Source: a virus (taxonomy: Duplodnaviria; Heunggongvirae; Uroviricota; Caudoviricetes). From it: a stretch of 39,184 nt of DNA. Both the position numbers and the translations under genes were made by a program. The stretch lies in the IMG/VR virus record IMGVR_UViG_2693429536_000016, one strand, 5' to 3'. The notes under the pieces were generated by a model, which did no database searches, was not told the origin of the DNA, and saw only the letters and a program-made list of their open reading frames with translations. The first letter of the stretch is position 1. Each line of letters starts with the position of its first letter. This document shows, piece by piece, positions 1,777 to 15,568 of the stretch.

Positions 1777-3372
1777 TTATGGCTGAGACTCTGGTTTAGC
1801 AATCTCGTTTATAAATTTCTTAGCTACAACAGTCTCATACTTTCTATAATCATCAAGATATTGAACATCTATATGATTTTTGTAGCGAGCATTAAATTTA
1901 TTTGCATCCCCTGTTTTATCATCTTTACGTTCATCCGTTGGTCTGAAAAATTTATGGTAGCGGCGGGGTGATACCCCCTCAAAATCACAAAATATTACTT
2001 TGGAAGATTCTTCGTTCTTTGTTATTGCATCATTATGCAGATCAAGAGCAAGGCTTTTATCAAATGGCTCTATATATACTACTTTTTTTATTCCAGATGC
2101 GACAATATGCCTTGCACAGTTGTGGCAGGGATAGGTTGTCGTAAAAAGAATTTTATCTTTAGTATCGCCGTTTTGTTTTCTAGCCATTGATGTAATGACG
2201 TCCATTTCAGCATGAATTGATCTGGAGTACTCCATTACACTTGATATTTTGCTGTCTTTGTAAATGCCTTCTGCAATATTATCTAATTTGTTTAGAAGTC
2301 GTGTTATATTAATATCGGCAACAGTTTGTCCTGCGGAAATACCTAATACACTTCTTACTTCGGTTGATAATATGCTTTTTATACGGTCTTTAATTTTTTG
2401 CTTGTTTGCATCATTATAACACTTACCACTTTTGTGAACGCATCGATGATCGTTATCAAAATCATCACTGCTATACAACCCGCCACCAGCTTTAGGTACG
2501 TCGTTCTTACCCACGGCAAGCAAATTCCCTTCATCATCAAACAGTGCAGCCCCTACTTGACGTGATAAACAAGCTGATTGTAATGATGTTGAAAAGGCAG
2601 CATACATACCTTTCTCGTTAAAAGTTGGTGTTAAACCATTTTTGCCATGAATAAGACCGAAAAACCGATCAATCTTCTTCTTTAATTCACTTTTTTGGCT
2701 GAAGTTATTTTTAATAAAAAAATCTGAATCAAGAATGGTTTCCCCGGTTCTTTGTCCATACGGATCAGAGGATTTATTATCAATATTAATAATTAAATGA
2801 AGGTCGTCCTTTGTCGATTCGTCAGCAATGAGATTCGTAATTCGGTAATCTAAATCGCGCAAAACTCCTAACAAATAGAAATTATGCTGATATATAACTC
2901 TGAATAACTCTATTTCTTCCGGCCTTTTGAATTGATCAATGATGAAGACAGTACCTTTATATTCATCATTATTATAATCAATATTCTTTTTCGCTGCTGC
3001 GATTGCTGCAATAGCAGCTTCTGCAAGCAACTCATTTTTTTCGTAATGTTTACGAAGTTTATTGGCAATATCCTGGAGTTTTAAATGTCTATTAACTTGT
3101 GTGCTTTCGGATACCTTCAGTGCTGCTGGCTCAAAATATAATGGGTCTTCCATAAGCGCACTTATGCGGATGTGTACAACATTATACCCCCATTCTTTGG
3201 ATATCTCTTCGATAATTTTGTTTATCGTTTTCATGCCACATCCAACATATCCACATAATCCAAGATAAATATCTTTTGATTGTCGTGAATTCACAATCTC
3301 AAGTGATGATGCCGATGTTGAGCCTTTTTTTTCATTCAGCTTTTGTGGAGTTTTTTTTGCTGCTTCAGCCAT
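1777..3372 (-). CDS. Two-domain protein: N-terminal P-loop-like nucleotide kinase-like domain fused to C-terminal cytidine/dCMP deaminase zinc-binding domain (AvcD / anti-phage dCTP-deaminase-like candidate)
   Basis: 531 aa; glycine-rich motif LGLCGYVGCGMKT near N-terminus; C-terminal HAEMDVI ... YPCHNCARHIVASGIKKVVYIEPF (HAE + PCxxC zinc-binding deaminase signature). Low-GC gene inserted between int and xis. Confidence 0.6.
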   Translation of the reverse strand: MAEAAKKTPQKLNEKKGSTSASSLEIVNSRQSKDIYLGLCGYVGCGMKTINKIIEEISKEWGYNVVHIRISALMEDPLYFEPAALKVSESTQVNRHLKLQDIANKLRKHYEKNELLAEAAIAAIAAAKKNIDYNNDEYKGTVFIIDQFKRPEEIELFRVIYQHNFYLLGVLRDLDYRITNLIADESTKDDLHLIINIDNKSSDPYGQRTGETILDSDFFIKNNFSQKSELKKKIDRFFGLIHGKNGLTPTFNEKGMYAAFSTSLQSACLSRQVGAALFDDEGNLLAVGKNDVPKAGGGLYSSDDFDNDHRCVHKSGKCYNDANKQKIKDRIKSILSTEVRSVLGISAGQTVADINITRLLNKLDNIAEGIYKDSKISSVMEYSRSIHAEMDVITSMARKQNGDTKDKILFTTTYPCHNCARHIVASGIKKVVYIEPFDKSLALDLHNDAITKNEESSKVIFCDFEGVSPRRYHKFFRPTDERKDDKTGDANKFNARYKNHIDVQYLDDYRKYETVVAKKFINEIAKPESQP

Positions 3373-3665: not shown

Positions 3666-3932
3666 TCATGTTTTTTCCCACCCATGAAAATGTTCACCTA
3701 GGCTGGTGAGGCATTTTATGTACATCAACTCTTTGAGTTGAATCATTATTTTAGTATTTTTTCTATCATTGTGTAAATGTCTTCGTTTCAATACATCATG
3801 CTTGGGGAGCGGTCCCCGTTTCCTGATAATTAATGCTTGTGGATAGCAACGTCCGTGCCTATATCGCTCAGACAGACGCTTACCGTGCCATAGACGTGTC
3901 TGTTCACATACGTCATTCAATAACTCCTGCAA
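3666..3932 (-). CDS. Hypothetical small basic ORF downstream of xis (doubtful)
   Basis: 88-aa ORF, very R/K/H-rich, overlaps xis 3' end; composition is not convincingly protein-like. Confidence 0.2.
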   Translation of the reverse strand: MQELLNDVCEQTRLWHGKRLSERYRHGRCYPQALIIRKRGPLPKHDVLKRRHLHNDRKNTKIMIQLKELMYIKCLTSLGEHFHGWEKT

Positions 3933-4107
3933 ACCTGTAAATCTTGCGTGACGCCCATTTATTTGGGCATGATTTAATATCAGGATCTGGAAAATCAGGC
4001 CTGTACTTCTGGCCAGTTCTCCGGTTTACGCTGTTCCAGCGAAGAACTGTCGATACTGAAACGCCACAGAATTCGGCAACTTGTTTTGTTGTCATTAAGT
4101 TGTTCAT
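3913..4107 (-). CDS. xis: Excisionase / AlpA-like helix-turn-helix DNA-binding protein
   Basis: Start MNNLMTTKQVAEFCGVSVSTVLRW (HTH) at 4107 in TAATG overlap with upstream gene stop; small size and position near int. Confidence 0.6.
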   Translation of the reverse strand: MNNLMTTKQVAEFCGVSVSTVLRWNSVNRRTGQKYRPDFPDPDIKSCPNKWASRKIYRFAGVIE

Positions 4108-4502
4108 TAGTTCACCTTCTGCGGTTGTGCAGTTGAAAGACTCATTCCAGCGCGTTGCTGCCAGACAACCCAGCCGAGAGCCATATCCCATGCCATGTAC
4201 TCGTTATCGCCGTTTTTGGCTCTCCGACGATCTACTGAGTCACCGAAACGCTTTTCCATGAATAATTCATAAGATATTCGTTCATTTGTGATGGTCATTA
4301 CGGGAGGAGCTAGGTAGAGAGGCGTTCCACCATTTTTGTTGGTAAGTGCAACTACACTTTTACTCAGCATCCATGCCACCGGCTTTTTATCAAGAGAAGC
4401 CAAAGCTATTTGTGCTAGTTCCATTTGCTCGCCACGGGTAAGTCTGTTTTCAAGCGGATTTTTAATGAATAATTCGATACGTTCTTTGGTAATAGAATTC
4501 AT
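4107..4502 (-). CDS. Hypothetical phage early protein
   Basis: 131-aa ORF, translationally coupled (TAGcATG) to upstream gene in the leftward operon. Confidence 0.5.
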   Translation of the reverse strand: MNSITKERIELFIKNPLENRLTRGEQMELAQIALASLDKKPVAWMLSKSVVALTNKNGGTPLYLAPPVMTITNERISYELFMEKRFGDSVDRRRAKNGDNEYMAWDMALGWVVWQQRAGMSLSTAQPQKVN

Positions 4503-4503
4503 G

Positions 4504-4899
4504 CTATTTCACCTTGATCTCAACATTTCGCAGCCGTAGCTCCACTGGCAGGTCTGACTTTCCGGTTAAAGCTAATGCGAGATTTTCTAGAGTAATGAGA
4601 GCTGTTATTGTTTTCCCCATACAGGCGTTATCACCAACACGCTCAAGATGCGGAGGGTCGAATACAACCACCGAAAAAGATGCGTCTGCAAATGGTAATG
4701 CACGAGAATCAGCTATCAGGTCAGGACTGATAATCAGGCGTTGCCCATCGCACAATGTATGCTCTTCCTTTCTGATATCGCTGAATATCGCCCGTTCGTC
4801 ATTTGTATCGAACCAGAACATGCGACTGCCACAGCACATGTCGAGGATTGCTGCATGTCCAGTCACTGGTTGCCCCCTTTGCGAAGCCGTTCCGCCCAT
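4504..4899 (-). CDS. Hypothetical protein with methyltransferase-like motifs (DMCCGS and FDPPH); possible small or fragmentary DNA methyltransferase
   Basis: 131-aa ORF; SAM-binding-like D-x-C-C-G-S and DPPH catalytic-like motif ~60 aa apart; too short for a complete MTase. Confidence 0.4.
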   Translation of the reverse strand: MGGTASQRGQPVTGHAAILDMCCGSRMFWFDTNDERAIFSDIRKEEHTLCDGQRLIISPDLIADSRALPFADASFSVVVFDPPHLERVGDNACMGKTITALITLENLALALTGKSDLPVELRLRNVEIKVK

Positions 4900-5213
4900 T
4901 CTTCAAGGGATTTCTCCGCATATTCACCAGACAGGCCATCAATCGGATGCGATTCATTAGCTAACTCTTCTTTCGCTGACAGAATCATGCGTGTAACGTC
5001 GAAAACTTCAGTCAAAGGCTTATTGATAAATCCGTGATTGAAAGCAGAAGCAAGACGGCTTGCGGTATAGTTAATACCCTCGTTGCGAGCCTCAGCACGT
5101 ACTTCATCGAATTTACGCACCAGATACTCAGCATTTGTTTCATTCACTTTCAGATCTCGCGGTACACATTTCCCGCGAAGAAAACCTTCCATTTCGAAAA
5201 CATTTATGCGCAT
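4863..5213 (-). CDS. Hypothetical phage early protein
   Basis: 116-aa ORF in leftward operon, overlaps neighbours by a few codons. Confidence 0.5.
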   Translation of the reverse strand: MRINVFEMEGFLRGKCVPRDLKVNETNAEYLVRKFDEVRAEARNEGINYTASRLASAFNHGFINKPLTEVFDVTRMILSAKEELANESHPIDGLSGEYAEKSLEEWAERLRKGGNQ

Positions 5214-5821
5214 TTGCGTAACTCCGATAACTCGTTAAAACGTTCCATAAACATCCCGTAGGCATGGCCTGGTGACAGTGGAATAACTTTGAACATCTCT
5301 GTTGCCGGGATGCCTTCCAGTACAGGCCAGAAAGAGCCATCATCAAGCCCGAGATCACGGCGTTCGGTTGCCAGCATGATTAGATCGGCATATTTCACAG
5401 GCGTACTCATAACCGGGGGCAACTCGTATTTCTCACGGATTACTGCGTCTATTTTTTCTTCCATCCGTTTATAGTCAGGAAGAAGGCGTTTCAGTGGTGC
5501 GGGGATGTCCTGGCAATACGCTTCTGTTGCATCATGCATTAACGCTTCAAAAGCAAATTCCTGCGGCACCAGCTGGCTGCAAAGCACCGCATGTTGGGCG
5601 ACGCTGTAGAAGTGAGAAAGATGACCGGCAAAGCGGCAGATATTTGAAAGGGAAACCGCGATATCGTTAATCACGATGTCGTTTTTATTTATCTTGTCAT
5701 AATAAAAATGCTTCCCGGAAAAAGTTTTAATAAATGACATTTTGTTCTCCACGTATATGCGCTGCACCGCGCTGAATTCGGGTAAAAGGAAGCCCTCGCT
5801 ATCAGGCGATTGTTGAGTCAA
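5204..5821 (-). CDS. HD-domain phosphohydrolase (5'-deoxynucleotidase-like, YfdR-like)
   Basis: Motifs ...SVAQHAV... and ...LMHDATE... (H...HD) typical of the HD superfamily; true start may be internal Met (MSFIKTF, ~5740). Confidence 0.6.
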   Translation of the reverse strand: MTQQSPDSEGFLLPEFSAVQRIYVENKMSFIKTFSGKHFYYDKINKNDIVINDIAVSLSNICRFAGHLSHFYSVAQHAVLCSQLVPQEFAFEALMHDATEAYCQDIPAPLKRLLPDYKRMEEKIDAVIREKYELPPVMSTPVKYADLIMLATERRDLGLDDGSFWPVLEGIPATEMFKVIPLSPGHAYGMFMERFNELSELRKCA

Positions 5822-5867
5822 TTACGTTTCCATAAATGCCCCCGCAGGGGCATTTGCAGCAATGAAA

Positions 5868-6692
5868 TCAGGCGGTGAAAGTACCAATAAAGGTTTCTAC
5901 TTTGCTGTCTTTGAATTTCTCAACAAGCAGATCACGAAATTCGTTAGCCATTTCTTCCTGGACTGCTTCCAACTGAATAATGCGCAGAACCAGTACAGGA
6001 CGATCGCCAGTGATAATGCTGAGGCGTAATTTAAACGGACGTTCTTTCAGACTTTCAAACGGAACGCATTTAAATTCAAATGCCACTGGCATAATATCTT
6101 TGGTCTTCGCTTCGACAGACTCCATCAGGGAGCGTTTTCCGCTGAAGTCATTATCTTCAAAATCAGCGGTCTGGTTTGCTTCAATCGTGATTTTACGGAC
6201 AGCCGCAGCCGCTTTTGTTGCCTGAATAGCGTCACCATTAGCATCAAAGCCTACAAGGTAGTCGGCCCAGTCTTCAATCCATTCTGCCAGTGACTTCTGG
6301 GAGTTACGCTCGCCGTTAACAGACAACAGAGCAGAGAACGGTGCTGTCTTTTTCAGTTTGAGAATGGCGGTGTTATCTGCGTGACCTGGTTCATCAATAG
6401 TACCCAGGTTAAGCACACTGACGGCACGCATATTATCAGCATCGATAAAGCAGCGGGTGCCTTCATCTGCAAGATCTTTAGAATAACGGGTAAAGTCATC
6501 GATGCTGGCAGTGGAAAGCGCACCACGGAAACGGAAGCGATTTAAATTAAATTTTTCCAGATCATGAATGCGGAAATTCTCAGGCAATGCCACAGCATCG
6601 GCACCAATCTTACTGATAATTTCATTAACACCCTGAGCAGAAATAAGGGCATGGATTTGATTAATTGCGGTTGCGTCTAAGTTCTGAGACAT
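5868..6692 (-). CDS. Conserved prophage protein, YfdQ/DUF2303-like
   Basis: 274-aa ORF adjacent to HD-domain gene, an arrangement I recall from CPS-53-type prophage early regions; function unknown. Confidence 0.5.
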
Positions 6693-6757
6693 AATAAGTC
6701 CTCACTATATAAAGATATTCAGTGATGAGATAAATAATCAGTTAATTAAGAACGATA

Positions 6758-7120
6758 TTAATGACCTGCTGCGCGGAGTTTTCCGTCAGGTTCACCGGCA
6801 AGAGTCAGTAATTGTCCCTGGTCTTCCTGCAGAATAGTCAGGCGACCACCGCGATTGACATACATCGGCGTTTCGGTGGTGTCTTCTTCAGAAATTTTCC
6901 CGCGGTTAGTCGGGCGAACATATGAGAGTTTGTGTTTGATTTTCACACGGTTCTCATCAAATGGTTCGATTTCCAGGTTGAGTGAGACCTTACCTTTGGT
7001 CTTCGTGTTCATCACACCTGAAGCGACTTCACTGAGAACTGCGCCGATTTTGGTTTCAAATACGCCGCCGTCCAACTCCCCGATAAATGCCTGCACATCA
7101 GTACTGCGTTCGCTAGCCAT
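6758..7120 (-). CDS. First gene of leftward early operon, hypothetical protein
   Basis: Start ATG at 7120 (MASERSTD...) preceded by GAGGAG RBS; the ORF-track N-terminal extension (7121-7306) overlaps a structured leader and is unlikely to be coding. Confidence 0.5.
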   Translation of the reverse strand: MASERSTDVQAFIGELDGGVFETKIGAVLSEVASGVMNTKTKGKVSLNLEIEPFDENRVKIKHKLSYVRPTNRGKISEEDTTETPMYVNRGGRLTILQEDQGQLLTLAGEPDGKLRAAGH

Positions 7121-7168
7121 TTTGCTGCTCCTCATCATATCGACCCTGCAAGGTCGGTTGGTTTCTCC

Positions 7169-7303
7169 ACAAAACAGAGAAGAACACCTGCGGTGGCAGC
7201 CGCCCGGATGGATTGGGTTATGAGCCCGTCGTCCGGTGATGCTCTTCTCTGTTTTGTAAAAAGAGCGGTACCAGCCGGAAGCAAGTGTACAAACTGGTAC
7301 CGC
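7169..7303 (-). promoter_or_regulatory. Structured leader of the leftward early transcript: 18-bp inverted repeat (7169-7186 / 7240-7257) and 10-bp perfect inverted repeat GCGGTACCAG/CTGGTACCGC (7265-7274 / 7294-7303)
   Basis: Long stems read directly from the sequence between the putative pL/OL (7463-7515) and the first leftward gene; candidate nut/put-like antitermination or terminator elements. Confidence 0.3.
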
Positions 7304-7462
7304 CAAAGCAGTGGCTGTTGTGGTGACCGGTGCTGATCTCCGGCTTGCGGTTATTTCAGACTCTCACGGGCGTTTAATTGCCCCGCCGAACAGCTCTTTT
7401 CCGCAATAGCTGCAATGTCTTTCGCGCATCAGCCTGCGCATTCACCACAACTCTAAAAACAA

Positions 7463-7515
7463 ATGTAGGATATCCAACATGTAAGTGTCAAGAGTTTATG
7501 TTGGTTATCCTACAT
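7463..7515 (-). promoter_or_regulatory. OL-type operator pair with leftward promoter (pL candidate)
   Basis: Two 18-bp palindromic sites ATGTAGGATATCCAACAT (7463-7480) and ATGTTGGTTATCCTACAT (7498-7515); on the - strand TTGACA (7491-7486) -17 nt- CTACAT resembles -35/-10. Confidence 0.5.
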
Positions 7516-7531
7516 AAAAAGATAGGCTCAT

Positions 7532-7557
7532 AAAAAAACCGGGGATACCCCGGTTTT
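7532..7557 (-). terminator. Rho-independent terminator downstream of cI
   Basis: A7 - ACCGGGG ata CCCCGGT - TTTT: GC stem with U-run on the - strand after the cI stop. Confidence 0.5.
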
Positions 7558-7577: not shown

Positions 7578-8231
7578 TCAAAAATCCATTATTACTTGTT
7601 TGACAAGACCAACTATTCTGCAGTTCTCACCGCATTCAATAGTTTTATAGTTAGGATTTAGTGGGACGAGATACCTGTTCGGCCAGTCCTCAACAAATTT
7701 TTTGAGTGTCGCTTCTTGCCCACCATTGATATGGGCAACAACGATTTTTCCGTTAATACACTCTGTATCAATAATATCTGGCTCTACGATAACGATAGAA
7801 CCTTCTGGTATCGATGGTGAGCCGAGGGGATTGGTCATTGAATCACCACGGACCCGTAGTGCAAATGCCATTTCTGATACAAGGGCGGTAGTATAAACCC
7901 ACTCTTCAGCATCTTCTTTCCTGACACCAGGCTCCGTCATTGTCCATGAACCCGCCTGAACCCACGAGATGAGGGGGACTTTTTTAACTGCGAATATTTC
8001 AGGTTTTAGATTTATCTTTGGTTCAGGCGAGCCTTTTCCGCTAACAAGCCACAGAGGATCGCATTTAAGTGCGTTGGCTAGGGCTTGAAGGTTGGCTCCA
8101 TTTGGTTGGTAGTCGTCCTTTTCCCATCCAGTAACCGTGACACGGTTCACACCAGTCAAATCAGCCAGTGCTTGTTGTGTCAGGTTCAGTTCTTTTCGCC
8201 TTTGGCGAATACGATCACTCATGTTCATCAT
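7578..8231 (-). CDS. cI: CI-type prophage repressor (N-terminal XRE HTH + C-terminal LexA/S24-like autopeptidase domain)
   Basis: HTH ...LNLTQQALADLTGVNRVTVTGWE...; C-terminal ...VRGDSMTNP... and ...KIVVAHINGGQEATLKKF... consistent with S24 Ser/Lys dyad fold; divergent from cro and flanked by operators. Start is one of the Met codons at 8231/8228/8222. Confidence 0.85.
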   Translation of the reverse strand: MMNMSDRIRQRRKELNLTQQALADLTGVNRVTVTGWEKDDYQPNGANLQALANALKCDPLWLVSGKGSPEPKINLKPEIFAVKKVPLISWVQAGSWTMTEPGVRKEDAEEWVYTTALVSEMAFALRVRGDSMTNPLGSPSIPEGSIVIVEPDIIDTECINGKIVVAHINGGQEATLKKFVEDWPNRYLVPLNPNYKTIECGENCRIVGLVKQVIMDF

Positions 8232-8294
8232 GTAGGCAATCCTACCACATGCCAATGTAGGATTCTTGACATTGGTATGTTGGATATCCTACAT
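8230..8294 (+). promoter_or_regulatory. OR-type tripartite operator with rightward promoter (pR candidate)
   Basis: Three related 18-bp sites: 8230-8247 (ATGTAGGCAATCCTACCA), 8255-8272 (ATGTAGGATTCTTGACAT), 8277-8294 (ATGTTGGATATCCTACAT); TTGACA at 8266-8271 and CTACAT at 8289-8294 with 17-nt spacer; cro ATG at 8327. Confidence 0.55.
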
Positions 8295-8326
8295 TTCTGC
8301 TTAACGTAATTTAACGGGAGACAGAA

Positions 8327-8524
8327 ATGCGGAAATCCGACGTGATTAATTATTTCGGCGGAGTTTGTAAAACCGCCGAAGCCCTAGGTATTAAGCATCC
8401 GTCTGTTTCAGAGTGGCCTGAGATTATTCCTGAAGGCCGAGCGTACCAGTTAGAAAAAATTACTAACGGAAAACTGAAAGTTGACGTGTCTTTATATCAA
8501 AAGACTAACAGTGCTGCGGCATAA
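8327..8524 (+). CDS. cro: Cro-like small DNA-binding regulator
   Basis: 65-aa ORF divergent from cI, RBS GGGAG; size and position match Cro/YdaS-like proteins. Confidence 0.65.
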   Translation: MRKSDVINYFGGVCKTAEALGIKHPSVSEWPEIIPEGRAYQLEKITNGKLKVDVSLYQKTNSAAA

Positions 8525-8551: not shown

Positions 8552-9130
8552 GTGGGTAAAGAACCTGAATGGAAAGTTGATAAACAACCAGCATGGCTGG
8601 TGGCAGCAATACGAAGAACGATTGCTGATTTACCTCATGGCTATGAGGAAGCAGCAGAAATTCTTGGTTTGTATAAATCTGATGATATCACCCCAGCAAA
8701 AGATCAATTGCATAACAGACTGCGTAGCGGTGGGGATCAAATTTTTCCACTTGAGTGGGCCATGGTTTTACAGGATGCCAGTGGTACCAGGCATATAACA
8801 GATGCAATAGCCCGTCGTAGTAATGGGGTGTTTGTGCCGCTGGTGGTCATTGATGACATTGACAATGGTGACATTAATCAGCGGCTGATGGAGTCAATAG
8901 AATGGATTGGCAAGCATTCCCAGTACTTACGCAAGGCAACTGCTGATGGAGTTATTGACCAGGCTGAGCGTGAGCAAATCGAAGAGAACAGCTACCAAGT
9001 AATGGCGAAGTGGCAGGAGCATTTAACACTGTTATTTCGTGTTTTTTGTGCGCCGGAAAAGAGTAACGCCCGCGAGTGTGCAGCTCCGGGCGTCGTGGCG
9101 TTTTGTGTCTGTGGAGAAACTAACGCATGA
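8552..9130 (+). CDS. Early regulatory protein, CII/YdaT-like (tentative)
   Basis: GTG start with AGGAA RBS; occupies the cII position after cro; assignment is by position and vague family resemblance only. Confidence 0.3.
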   Translation: MGKEPEWKVDKQPAWLVAAIRRTIADLPHGYEEAAEILGLYKSDDITPAKDQLHNRLRSGGDQIFPLEWAMVLQDASGTRHITDAIARRSNGVFVPLVVIDDIDNGDINQRLMESIEWIGKHSQYLRKATADGVIDQAEREQIEENSYQVMAKWQEHLTLLFRVFCAPEKSNARECAAPGVVAFCVCGETNA

Positions 9131-9732
9131 ACAGTTTAACGGCAAATAACCGTTTGTCGCAACAGCTGGTGGTCAGTGTCGCTGAACACCTGTTGTTACG
9201 GCATGAATGCAGATTACCAAATCACCTGGCTGTAAGTAACCACAGAGAACTTTACCTGACTGTGGGGGGCGAGTTGTGCAGGAACTTAACCGCTGGTTTC
9301 GTGATGGAAGAGGGCTTTATGTCCATGTTATTCGTTGGGAGCCAGAAACACAGCGCGTTATCTATCTTCGCAAAGACTACCCGCATGAGTGCTTTAGTCC
9401 TTTGTGGAAATTCAGGCGTGATTTTGTTGAGTGTGAAGGACCACCAGCACATTGATTCTGCCATTCCGGGACGTTACACTGTTCAGGCACCTTATAAAGC
9501 GGGTGCCGGGATTGGCGTCCTGAAATTGATTACTGAGCATAACCGCGCTCATGCGGTTTTTTCGTGTCATGAGCATTGCTACGCCCAAATTATGGTGGGG
9601 CGTACAGGGCCGACTTCGGTCGGGCCGGGTTCGGTAGTCTCCGGTAACGCCAACCCTGTACGTCTCACCACCTCTGTGATTGGCGTCCCATGTGGTGAGT
9701 TTTCTAAAAAACTGACTACCGGGGCTGTCACT

Positions 9733-10290
9733 ATGACTACTCTCCCAACCCTCTCTCAACCTGAAATTGCCATCGTTGATGGTCAGGCTGTTACATCTTC
9801 TTTGGCTGTTGCTGACTTCTTCTCTAAACGTCATGACGATGTTCTGAAAAAGATTCGCATTTTGGATTGTTCTCCAGAGTTTTGTGCCCGCAATTTTGCG
9901 GAGACATCAATTTTGGTACGCCAGCCCAACGGCGGTACTCGCAAACTACCTTGCTATCAAATAACCCGCGATGGCTTTGCGTTTCTTGCTATGGGTTTCA
10001 CGGGTAAACGTGCTGCCCAGTTCAAAGAGGCATACATCAATGCCTTTAACCAGATGGAGAAACAGCTTTCAAAGCCCGCTGTACCGAGCGACGTTGCACA
10101 TAACGCCAGTGTTCTCTATTCCTACATTTCATCAATTCATCAGGTCTGGTTGCAGCAGCTTTATCCCATGCTGGAAAAAGCTGAATCACCTCTGGCTGTA
10201 AGTCTGTATGACCGAATTAACGATGCGGCATTTCTTGCCCGTCTTATTCATTCGTCGCTGAACTCTTCAGAGGTAAGGGGGCGCAAATGA
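9733..10290 (+). CDS. Rha-family phage regulatory protein (antirepressor-like)
   Basis: Internal start MTTLPTLSQPEIAIVDGQAV... with conserved-looking ...PCYQITRDGFAFLAMGFTGKRAAQFKEAYINAF...; the ORF-track upstream extension (9127-9732) has poor protein-like composition. Confidence 0.5.
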   Translation: MTTLPTLSQPEIAIVDGQAVTSSLAVADFFSKRHDDVLKKIRILDCSPEFCARNFAETSILVRQPNGGTRKLPCYQITRDGFAFLAMGFTGKRAAQFKEAYINAFNQMEKQLSKPAVPSDVAHNASVLYSYISSIHQVWLQQLYPMLEKAESPLAVSLYDRINDAAFLARLIHSSLNSSEVRGRK

Positions 10291-15179: not shown

Positions 15180-15196
15180 TTTTGTGGAGAAAGTTG

Positions 15197-15568
15197 ATGC
15201 GTGATATTCAAATGGTTCTTGAACGTTGGGGGGCATGGGTGGCAAATAATCACGAGGATGTGGAATGGTCATCTGTTGCTGCAGGTTTTAAGGGATTAAT
15301 TCCTTCGAAAGTAAAATCCCGCCCGCAATGTAGCGATGACGATGGCCTGATCATTAGCTCTGCGATGACAGTTCTTAAGAAAAAGGAACCGTATCAATAC
15401 GAATTACTGGAAATGTATTATGTGTATGGGGTTACATTACGGGCGTTGGGGGTAAAACTGGGGATATCACTTAATCAGGTTGTTATCAGACTGCAGAAAG
15501 CTGAAGGGTTTATTGACGGTTGTCTGGCAATGTTGGGGGTATCTTTAGAAATTGATTGTTACATATAG
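15197..15568 (+). CDS. Late-gene antiterminator Q-like protein
   Basis: RBS GGAG 8 nt upstream; located directly upstream of the late/lysis region; N-terminus MRDIQMVLERWGAW resembles Q proteins of 21/82-type lambdoids. Confidence 0.55.
   Translation: MRDIQMVLERWGAWVANNHEDVEWSSVAAGFKGLIPSKVKSRPQCSDDDGLIISSAMTVLKKKEPYQYELLEMYYVYGVTLRALGVKLGISLNQVVIRLQKAEGFIDGCLAMLGVSLEIDCYI

Follow-up and report, generated by a model that had tools for sequence, protein, structure and literature searches.

A three-way-junction RNA downstream of a predicted sRNA-type terminator in the pL leader of an N-less lambdoid prophage

Structured phage leaders processed by RNase III and small RNAs of the DicF type are already known. 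RNase III sites such as those of the T7 R1.1 type and of the lambda N leader are plain helices, at most with an internal loop, and the put RNAs of HK022 and HK639 act through the beta-prime zinc-binding domain of RNA polymerase. In the dicBF operon of the K-12 prophage Qin, DicF is cut from the transcript of the pL-like promoter dicBp, with RNase III producing a 190-nt species and RNase E a 53-nt one (Ragunathan et al., doi 10.1101/2023.04.14.536235). For phage LLS, an RNA mechanism was suggested because no N homologue could be found (PMC12315714).

LLS belongs to a large clade of lambdoid phages without N and put, together with SfV, ST64B, mEp460 and some Stx2 phages. Here we describe the early leftward leader of a prophage of this kind. 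At the position of nutL or putL it has a unit of the sRNA type that includes a predicted terminator, and after it a conserved branched RNA without a name in databases. What is new in this RNA is a three-way junction with a hairpin that carries an initiator-like CAU loop; we found neither in Rfam 15 nor in the literature searched any RNA that combines the two.

Setting and parts of the leader

The window, that is, the whole stretch of 39,184 nucleotides that was analysed (IMG/VR record IMGVR_UViG_2693429536_000016), is an N-less lambdoid prophage of the SfV/mEp460/ST64B/LLS type, and its gene order is shared with mEp460, SfV, ST64B, phiNP, LLS and one Stx2a phage. The cI-like and cro-like genes are flanked by pL and pR (Table 1), each of which is embedded in one shared operator palindrome, ATGTAGGATATCCAACAT. 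Judging from the position of pL, the leftward transcript is predicted to start near 7455, and transcription then crosses four parts: a multi-hairpin body (module 1), a GC hairpin with a U-tract, the three-way junction, and a small GC hairpin (P4). Such a modular, non-coding leader is typical of lambdoid prophages without N, of the kind represented by Qin-dicBF, SfV and ST64B.

Table 1. Features of the early region, with coordinates in the window
Feature	Coordinates	Strand	Details
Q-like protein	15182-15568		Protein family scan
cII-like gene	8552-9130		
cro-like gene	8327-8524	+	
pR promoter	8266-8295	+	Form identical to pL, TTGACA-18-TACATT
cI-like repressor	7578-8255	-	
Operator palindromes at pL	7463-7480 and 7498-7515		Same sequence type as those of pR, 8255-8300
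pL promoter	7462..7491	-	TTGACA, 18-nt spacer, TACATT; 10/12 matches; -10 ends at 7462
Module 1, multi-hairpin body	7317..7451	-	10-bp closing stem, GUUGUGGUGA (7451-7442) with UCACCACAAC (7326-7317)
sRNA-type intrinsic terminator (predicted)	7258..7303	-	Stem 7303-7292 with 7276-7265, 15-nt loop, UCUUUUU 7264-7258
Three-way-junction RNA	7169..7257	-	Covariance model R1, 108.6 bits; covariation; fold
P1	7257-7238 with 7188-7169	-	20-bp helix including G.U pairs; contains the 18-bp repeat of the preliminary description
Junction A	7237	-	
P2	7236-7204	-	CCGGA-C-GA-C-GGG-CUCAUAA-CCC-AA-UC-CA-UCCGG
P2 apical hairpin	7215..7227	-	GGGCUCAUAACCC, identical to the anticodon stem-loop of E. coli initiator tRNA
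P3	7203-7190	-	GCGG-CUGCCA-CCGC
Junction A	7189	-	
Conserved GGAGAAAC motif	7161..7168	-	Directly 3' of P1; can pair with the terminator U-tract, lengthening P1
P4, small GC hairpin	7141..7156	-	CGACCU-UGCA-GGGUCG; -8.5 kcal/mol; between junction RNA and ribosome site
Shine-Dalgarno and start codon of first leftward gene	7118..7133	-	GAGGAG 7133-7128, AUG 7120-7118; read from sequence
First leftward gene, yfdP-like	6758..7120	-	120 aa, PHROG 204, not arginine-rich
yfdQ-like gene	5868-6692		Second leftward; PHROG 210
yfdR-like phosphatase gene	5204-5821		Third leftward; PHROG 318

The preliminary description of this DNA had drawn attention to a long, highly structured leader of about 340 nt, and this is well borne out: the leader (7456-7100, minus strand) folds at -141.7 kcal/mol (z = -5.6), with none of 100 shuffled sequences folding as well, and it is conserved. 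A comparison with phages by BLAST places mosaic breakpoints at about 7454, 7325 and 7305, and the part from 7305 leftward accompanies many different immunity regions. Of 5426 complete E. coli genomes, 2611 carry the leader or part of it, in no case with an annotation as RNA. The product of the first leftward gene is YfdP-like, in agreement with the earlier remark that it is no arginine-rich protein of the N type.

Folded alone, module 1 reaches a z-score of only -1.6, and its architecture and ends match the STnc100-like leaders of relatives and the spacer between dicF and dicB of K-12. The hairpin that follows contains the perfect 10-bp inverted repeat noted before, which we find at 7265-7274 and 7294-7303 with ten of ten positions complementary, and which as RNA extends to a GC-rich stem of 12 to 13 bp (-22 kcal/mol). 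With the U-tract next to it, this is a hairpin of the intrinsic-terminator type, DicF-like in form (UUUGGCGGUACCAG...CUGGUACCGC-U5); a simple terminator scan missed it because its loop of 15 nt exceeds the 8-nt maximum of the scan. It lies about 190 nt past the start, so the attenuator-like arrangement proposed in the preliminary description is present; the kinship to put proposed as the other option finds no support beyond position. In nearly all of 72 distinct contexts, a GC hairpin with U5-7 ends 0 to 1 nt before P1, and the hairpin sequences vary.

The layout of this stretch is that of DicF, with a short single-stranded 5' part, a GC hairpin and a U-tail in a prophage leader of the pL type. 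Rfam requires at least 48 bits for DicF (RF00039; K-12 DicF itself scores 76.7) and at least 47 bits for STnc100 (RF02076). In the relatives L089 and L100, the hairpin and its 5' flank match DicF at 29 bits (E about 0.004), and in the relatives L026 and L042, the stretch of about 220 nt from promoter to hairpin scores 43.4 and 42.4 bits for STnc100; the window itself matches neither family at E up to 10. It aligns with the L026 and L042 leaders at both ends of module 1 and is near-identical to them over the hairpin, and the junction element that adjoins their STnc100-like stretch is identical or near-identical to that of the window. Because the scores of the relatives are below threshold and the window has no Rfam match, we describe 7455-7258 by architecture and not by family: judging from its sequence and predicted fold, it appears to be an sRNA unit of DicF/STnc100 architecture that is a member of neither. 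A crude duplexfold test, which is uninformative even for DicF itself, gave no DicF-like complementarity to ftsZ.

Structure and conservation of the three-way-junction RNA

The second repeat of the preliminary description, of 18 bp, is likewise where it was said to be, as the core of two arms at 7169-7193 and 7233-7257 (25 nt, 84% complementary). As RNA, it closes a three-way junction, and the 102-nt junction element folded alone gives exactly the P1-P2-P3 structure at -51 kcal/mol (z = -7.8, none of 200 shuffles as good, ensemble frequency 0.34). In the minimum free energy fold, the P1 helix reaches 25 pairs, 7262-7238 with 7188-7164. Covariance model R1 finds one copy of the element in the 39-kb window and none in the rightward or the late operon. 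Downstream of it, a hairpin of the P4 type is present in 53 of 56 distinct contexts, mostly with UGCA or GGCA loops.

The pairing is well supported by comparison. In an alignment of 12 sequences, pairing holds in 96% of the cells of the 34 pairs and falls to 36-49% once the 3' partners are shifted; five pairs show double changes. For a larger set, 80 distinct copies that represent 15 or more genera of Enterobacterales, the helices were anchored by script, because MAFFT alignments mixing both contexts in which the element occurs misaligned P1 and P3; a model-made alignment (A3) was left out, as it was contaminated by antisense matches of the long helix. Compensatory changes run through this set. 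Seven inner P1 pairs are 99-100% paired while swapping between CG, GC and UA, AU and CG, or AU and GC, the outer part of P1 swaps GC/CG (42/23) and CG/AU (40/17), and the outer stem of P2 swaps GC/UA/AU/UG and GC/AU. P3 takes the form of more than 40 different hairpins of 14-40 nt, with stems of at least 3 bp in 76 of the 80 copies and in about 32% of shuffles. That the minus strand is the transcript is evident from the frequent G.U pairs. The structure prediction and covariation analysis that had been proposed as a check find both stems conserved with compensatory substitutions in related prophages; the repeats exceed what chance would give.

The same data bear on the idea that the repeats are incidental, or that the region codes for a small protein, either a 47-aa ORF (7193-7336, plus strand) or a 49-aa ORF (7135-7284, minus strand). 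Hypothetical proteins are annotated here in some records, and the 47-aa ORF is annotated in mEp460 and by PGAP. We regard this idea as hardly credible, as the substitutions are compensatory for RNA pairing, the G.U pairs mark one strand as RNA, and the length of P3 changes by steps that are not multiples of three, which would break any reading frame and rules out the small annotated ORFs.

The element is widespread. A 22-nt pattern for P2 matched at least 120 viral contigs and 24 species-representative genomes, from Escherichia, Shigella, Citrobacter, Enterobacter, Kosakonia, Mixta, Buttiauxella, Leclercia, Phytobacter, Pseudescherichia, Raoultella, Pseudocitrobacter, Erwinia, Pantoea and Klebsiella. 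Searches of Rfam with the leader and with the whole window gave no family on the junction element at E up to 10; matches to Guanidine-I, miRNA families, the hairpin ribozyme and rydB are attributable to chance (E 0.6-8). A hammerhead was considered on account of a CUGAUGA motif in the Klebsiella copies and rejected, since the window has CGGACGA instead, showing no conservation of the motif, and Rfam gives no match. As one strand of P1 is rich in CA and the other in GU, we also considered the anti-sRNAs AgvB and AsxR; these are unrelated and sit in the late moron region.

Antitermination and the resemblance to initiator tRNA

The leader is not a put-type antiterminator. A covariance model for put (R2), built from HK022 putL, HK022 putR and HK639 putL (the last with coordinates from its GenBank annotation), recovers its own sites at 95.8 bits (HK022 putL), 93.1 bits (HK639 putL) and 64.5 bits (HK022 putR), and neither the window leader nor any of nine related loci gives a match with it, the best score anywhere in the window being 7.7 bits at 9129. 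What the window shares with the put loci of HK022 and HK639 is that a lambdoid phage lacking N has an RNA element in its pL leader, and that this element has several stems and conserved internal loops. The element differs from put in sequence and in structure, being a three-way junction where put consists of two tandem stem-loops in an RNA of about 70 nt. It differs in position as well: put is located close to or at the beginning of early transcripts, ahead of the terminators that it suppresses, and the element here about 200 nt past the start site, immediately downstream of the terminator in the leader. Only one copy is present; HK022 has one put site per early operon, and HK639 has putL only.

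Nor do we find the N system. No member of the N family is present among the ten proteins scanned, which were the seven leftward ORFs (3913-7120), cro, the cII-like protein and Q; the view that the prophage has no N-like gene therefore held for these ten. A search for boxA-like motifs, which had been suggested as a further check, gave no match in either early leader. The boxA-like CGCUCUUUUUACAA at 7270-7257 was discarded, as it is not conserved and relatives have GUCCUU or GCCCUU instead. Neither of the findings named beforehand as speaking against a regulatory RNA here, an N homologue elsewhere and stems without conservation in related phages, turned up, since no N was found among the ten proteins and the stems are conserved. 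The ops element (GGCGGTAGnnTG) has 35 matches with up to 2 mismatches in the window, where 30 are expected, and none in the leader.

The junction RNA could still be a new processive antiterminator, unrelated to put, that acts in cis by binding the elongating RNA polymerase and carrying it past terminators and Rho sites. The element is placed where a long operon begins (early-left in this prophage, late in phages of Klebsiella and Pantoea), its phage clade lacks N and put, and the extreme conservation of P2 would fit a conserved host target such as RNA polymerase; LLS, for which an RNA mechanism has been suggested (PMC12315714), carries the element. Against this, the element shows no similarity to put, occurs once and is missing from the rightward operon that must reach Q, and has the one strong terminator of the leader upstream of it, not downstream. 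The minus strand between 7120 and the operon-end terminator at 1770-1739 is predicted to contain no strong intrinsic terminator, and in late leaders antitermination is already provided by Q. We consider this reading very unlikely.

A second property of the element points elsewhere. The apical hairpin of P2 has three G-C pairs and the loop CUCAUAA, as is typical of the anticodon stem-loop of initiator tRNA. Its 13-mer, GGGCUCAUAACCC, occurs once in the window, where 0.04 occurrences would be expected even allowing one mismatch, and the corresponding segment of the initiator-tRNA gene is found in all 5426 E. coli genomes, in about four copies each, annotated as tRNA-Met. When the loop was left free in the search pattern, the variants of the P2 loop were CUCAUAA (151 copies), CUCAUUC (11), CUCAUUA (6), CCCAUAA (4), UUCAUAA (2) and CUCAUGA (1). 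CAU is thus invariant in all true copies, and loop positions 32, 33, 37 and 38 vary. As a separate observation, the P2 loop has 9 nt of complementarity to 7525-7533, within the variable immunity region.

The element is also found in a second context. Klebsiella phages (GZ7, Chronis, ST16-OXA48phi5.2 and others) have the same P2 with a different P3 in the late leader, between Q and the lysis genes and 6 nt past the last tRNA gene. There the element is closed by only GGCCUG / CAGGCC, followed by A/G-CCA, and a Pantoea phage has an intermediate form downstream of a terminator. In addition, the longer leaders of some relatives contain modules that Rfam scores as tRNA with a 68-nt insertion (40 bits, above threshold) and that ARAGORN, with introns allowed, reads as tRNA-Glu with an intron of 44 nt.

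The element itself is not a tRNA. ARAGORN calls no tRNA in the window and misses the late-leader copies in standard, mitochondrial and pseudogene modes, the Rfam tRNA model gives no match on the junction element, and there is neither a D arm nor a T-loop. The likeness to tRNA lies in the identical 13-nt anticodon stem-loop with its invariant CAU, and in the Klebsiella copies, which sit in a tRNA array and have a terminal stem of 6-7 bp and NCCA. The element differs from tRNA in its longer P2, with a conserved internal loop (YGAC / AAUCCA).

These likenesses suggest that the P2-P3 core could be functional in itself, as a trans-acting mimic of the initiator-tRNA anticodon arm, a decoy or a binder for some factor of the host or of a defence system by which tRNA-fMet or tRNAs with a CAU anticodon are recognised, with P1 or the neighbouring tRNAs serving only for its excision. 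Candidate targets would be an anticodon nuclease of the VapC type, MetRS, the P site of the 30S subunit with IF3, or a modifying enzyme. Such a mimic would account for the stem-loop identity, for a CAU that stays fixed as the loop positions around it change, for the near-invariance of P2 across at least 15 genera, and for the presence of the core in two excision contexts, a long helix in early leaders and a place after tRNA genes in late leaders, where the Klebsiella stem and its A/G-CCA look like a tRNA 3' end; the tRNA-scoring modules in related leaders fit as well. It has to be set against the lack of a tRNA call, D arm or T-loop, a G.U at the third stem pair of late-leader copies, the absence of a CCA end from the window copy and, in the literature searched, of any link between such an RNA and a defence system; furthermore, the resemblance was noticed after the fact. 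We take a mimic to be unlikely on balance. Decidedly unlikely is its fullest form, in which the core would be mass-produced from the most active phage promoters, excised by RNase III from the early-leader helix and by tRNA-processing enzymes from the late-leader arrays (with their NCCA end), and would target in trans a host factor by which tRNA-fMet is read, either luring away VapC-type nucleases that cut initiator tRNA or modulating translation initiation.

Proposed processing and comparison with known systems

The reading that we put first, tentatively and at slightly less than an even chance, is that the leader contains a terminator or attenuator and that RNase III then cuts P1, which would split an sRNA from the mRNA and free the core. 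Transcripts from pL would first make a structured RNA of about 195 nt, consisting of module 1, a short single strand and the GC hairpin with its U-tract, and so laid out like STnc100 and DicF, which are prophage sRNAs. The hairpin at 7303-7258 would terminate some part of this transcription, leaving an sRNA-like RNA, and the genes would be reached by read-through only. Read-through RNA would fold at once into the three-way junction, in which the 20-25 bp of P1 form a putative RNase III substrate. A cut there would separate the sRNA part from the mRNA and release a compact core of about 60-70 nt (P2 and P3), which may be stable, and the yfdP mRNA would keep a 5' end protected by the small P4 hairpin. 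The dense structure would moreover deny Rho a place to load on the long untranslated RNA.

This last effect could be all there is, in a purely cis role where the leader blocks Rho loading and 5' decay or sets the translation of the first gene, with no processing. The length of the untranslated RNA (340 nt), almost fully paired, would suit such a role, as would the conservation of P4 just before the ribosome site and the ability of the GGAGAAAC motif to pair with the U-tract. It seems quite unlikely to us, given that the element precedes different first genes, that late-leader copies are far from any start codon, and that a mere structural shield needs no invariance in the P2 loop sequence.

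The RNase III step of the first reading draws on the length of the helix and on a weak match in Qin. P1, with 20 bp extendable to 25, offers about two turns of uninterrupted helix, as RNase III sites do. A Qin stem at 2173-2258 of locus L134 matches R1 weakly (16.3 bits, E 0.012) and folds as a stem, and counting 190 nt back from the 3' end of DicF leads to about position 2246 of that locus, within the 3' strand of this stem, which is why we propose helices of the P1 type as RNase III sites. This step leaves something unexplained, since an RNase III site needs only a double helix, and the near-invariance of P2 across genera and its two contexts do not follow from it. In the late-leader copies of Klebsiella and Pantoea phages, P1 has only 6-12 bp; this is too short for RNase III, so the core must matter there for another reason. 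We therefore keep the mimicry of tRNA as the main rival or complement: it is compatible with cutting at P1 and adds a function to it.

If P1 is an RNase III site, the dicBF processing scheme would extend to many functional phages. Should the tRNA-like core act in trans, it would represent a new class of phage RNA, one directed at the machinery of initiator tRNA. Under either reading, the junction element deserves a curated family.

Among known systems, the leader can be compared with dicBF of Qin in many respects. Both have a pL-like promoter under a cI-like repressor, followed by a long non-coding stretch of structured modules, and an sRNA that ends (in the window by prediction) in a GC hairpin and U-tract of the form UUUGGCGGUAxCAG... 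The long stem of Qin, upstream of dicF, shares the sequence frame of P1 (AYAAC..GAAAGCGCA / UGCGCUUCC.GUUGUG), and the module opening GUGGUGAAUGCGG is found in the dicF-dicB spacer, as in the window at 7447-7435; this spacer scores 34.4 bits for STnc100, below the 47 required. The order of the parts differs, with the long stem of Qin upstream of DicF and module 1 downstream. Qin lacks a P2 hairpin with a CAU loop, and the window hairpin reaches no Rfam score for DicF. In comparison with STnc100, the L026 and L042 leaders have in common with the window (7451-7258) the stem that closes module 1, the final hairpin and the terminator, but the window gives no match to the family and the interior of module 1 has diverged. 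Finally, as in RNase III sites of the T7 R1.1 type and of the lambda N leader, a long helix lies in the leader of an early operon, between functional RNAs, and the predicted cleavage would leave ends protected by hairpins; unlike in those sites, the helix in the window carries a conserved branched cap with a tRNA-like hairpin.

Helix P1 and the hairpin 3' of it

Most lineages carry a C.C or A.C mismatch midway along P1, the basal helix of the three-way junction (38 of 65 distinct copies). The mismatch lies at position 10 counted from the junction (k=9; about 7228/7178 in the window), where the window lineage has a G-C pair, in contrast to most other lineages. By analogy with T7 sites, such a mismatch could make RNase III favour one of the two strands. 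About 13 nt 3' of P1 there is a recurrent GC hairpin whose tetraloop is UGCA or GGCA, at 7141-7156 in the window and at equivalent sites in 53 of 56 related contexts (for example, GGCGGU-GGCA-GCCGCC), and UGCAG-type loops recur inside the long variants of P3. This hairpin may bind a protein or stabilise a 5' end.

Surroundings of the leader in the window

The hairpin that separates pL from the cI end is flanked by A/T runs at both sides and looks like a bidirectional terminator that would shield pL from cI transcription. The P2 loop and the RNA immediately 3' of the cI terminator share 9 nt of perfect complementarity (7525-7533 versus 7218-7226, UUAUGAGCC / GGCUCAUAA), which is probably due to chance, as it is located in the variable immunity region. 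In the early-left operon, the ORF at 4504-4899 (- strand) aligns with phage DNA methyltransferase families over just a portion of their length, probably because the gene is truncated or fused. Within the rightward operon, the two RNAs at 9487-9675 are enclosed by a mechanically listed ORF (9127-10290). They appear to belong to an immunity module of the P1/P7 c4-ant (antirepressor) type, so the true start of the ant/Rha gene must be 3' of both.

Features located in the window and in related loci
Feature	Location	Strand	Context or match
Perfect 10-bp hairpin, AAAACCGGGG-ATA-CCCCGGTTTT	window 7535-7557		between cI end and pL
isrK	window 9487-9563	+	Rfam, 59 bits, above threshold
C4 antisense RNA	window 9588-9675	+	Rfam, 82 bits, above threshold
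tRNA-like module	L089 (related prophage) 1800-1925	+	Rfam tRNA, 40 bits
tRNA-like module	L100 (related prophage) 4364-4488	-	Rfam tRNA, 29.5 bits
P2 core copy	L003 2503-2580; also L004, L010, L011 (Klebsiella phages)		late-operon leader
P2 core copy	L008 (Pantoea phage PA-1) 1480-1610		late-operon leader
dicF-dicB spacer	L134 (K-12 Qin) 2433-2642		STnc100, 34 bits

tRNA-like and DicF/STnc100 modules

The pL leaders of two related prophages (L089 and L100) are about 1 kb long, and each holds a tRNA-like module in which D and T arms accompany an acceptor stem of 7 bp (GUUGUGG / CCACAAC) and the anticodon region is interrupted by 68 inserted nt. These leaders also contain additional modules with framing stems (ACACAAC..GAAAGAGCA / UGCUCUU..GUUGUG) and several T-arm-like hairpins. 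In late-operon leaders, the P2 core lies 6 nt 3' of the last tRNA gene. Its closing stem there is GGCCUG / CAGGCC, and the A/G-CCA that comes next resembles a tRNA 3' end; the core carries no annotation in any record examined. Last, the dicF-dicB spacer of K-12 Qin is predicted to fold into a stem that pairs distant segments (z = -4.1), and it shares its opening sequence, GUGGUGAAUGCGG, with module 1 of the window. Together with its STnc100 score, these features suggest a single leader system in which DicF and STnc100 units have been shuffled as modules.
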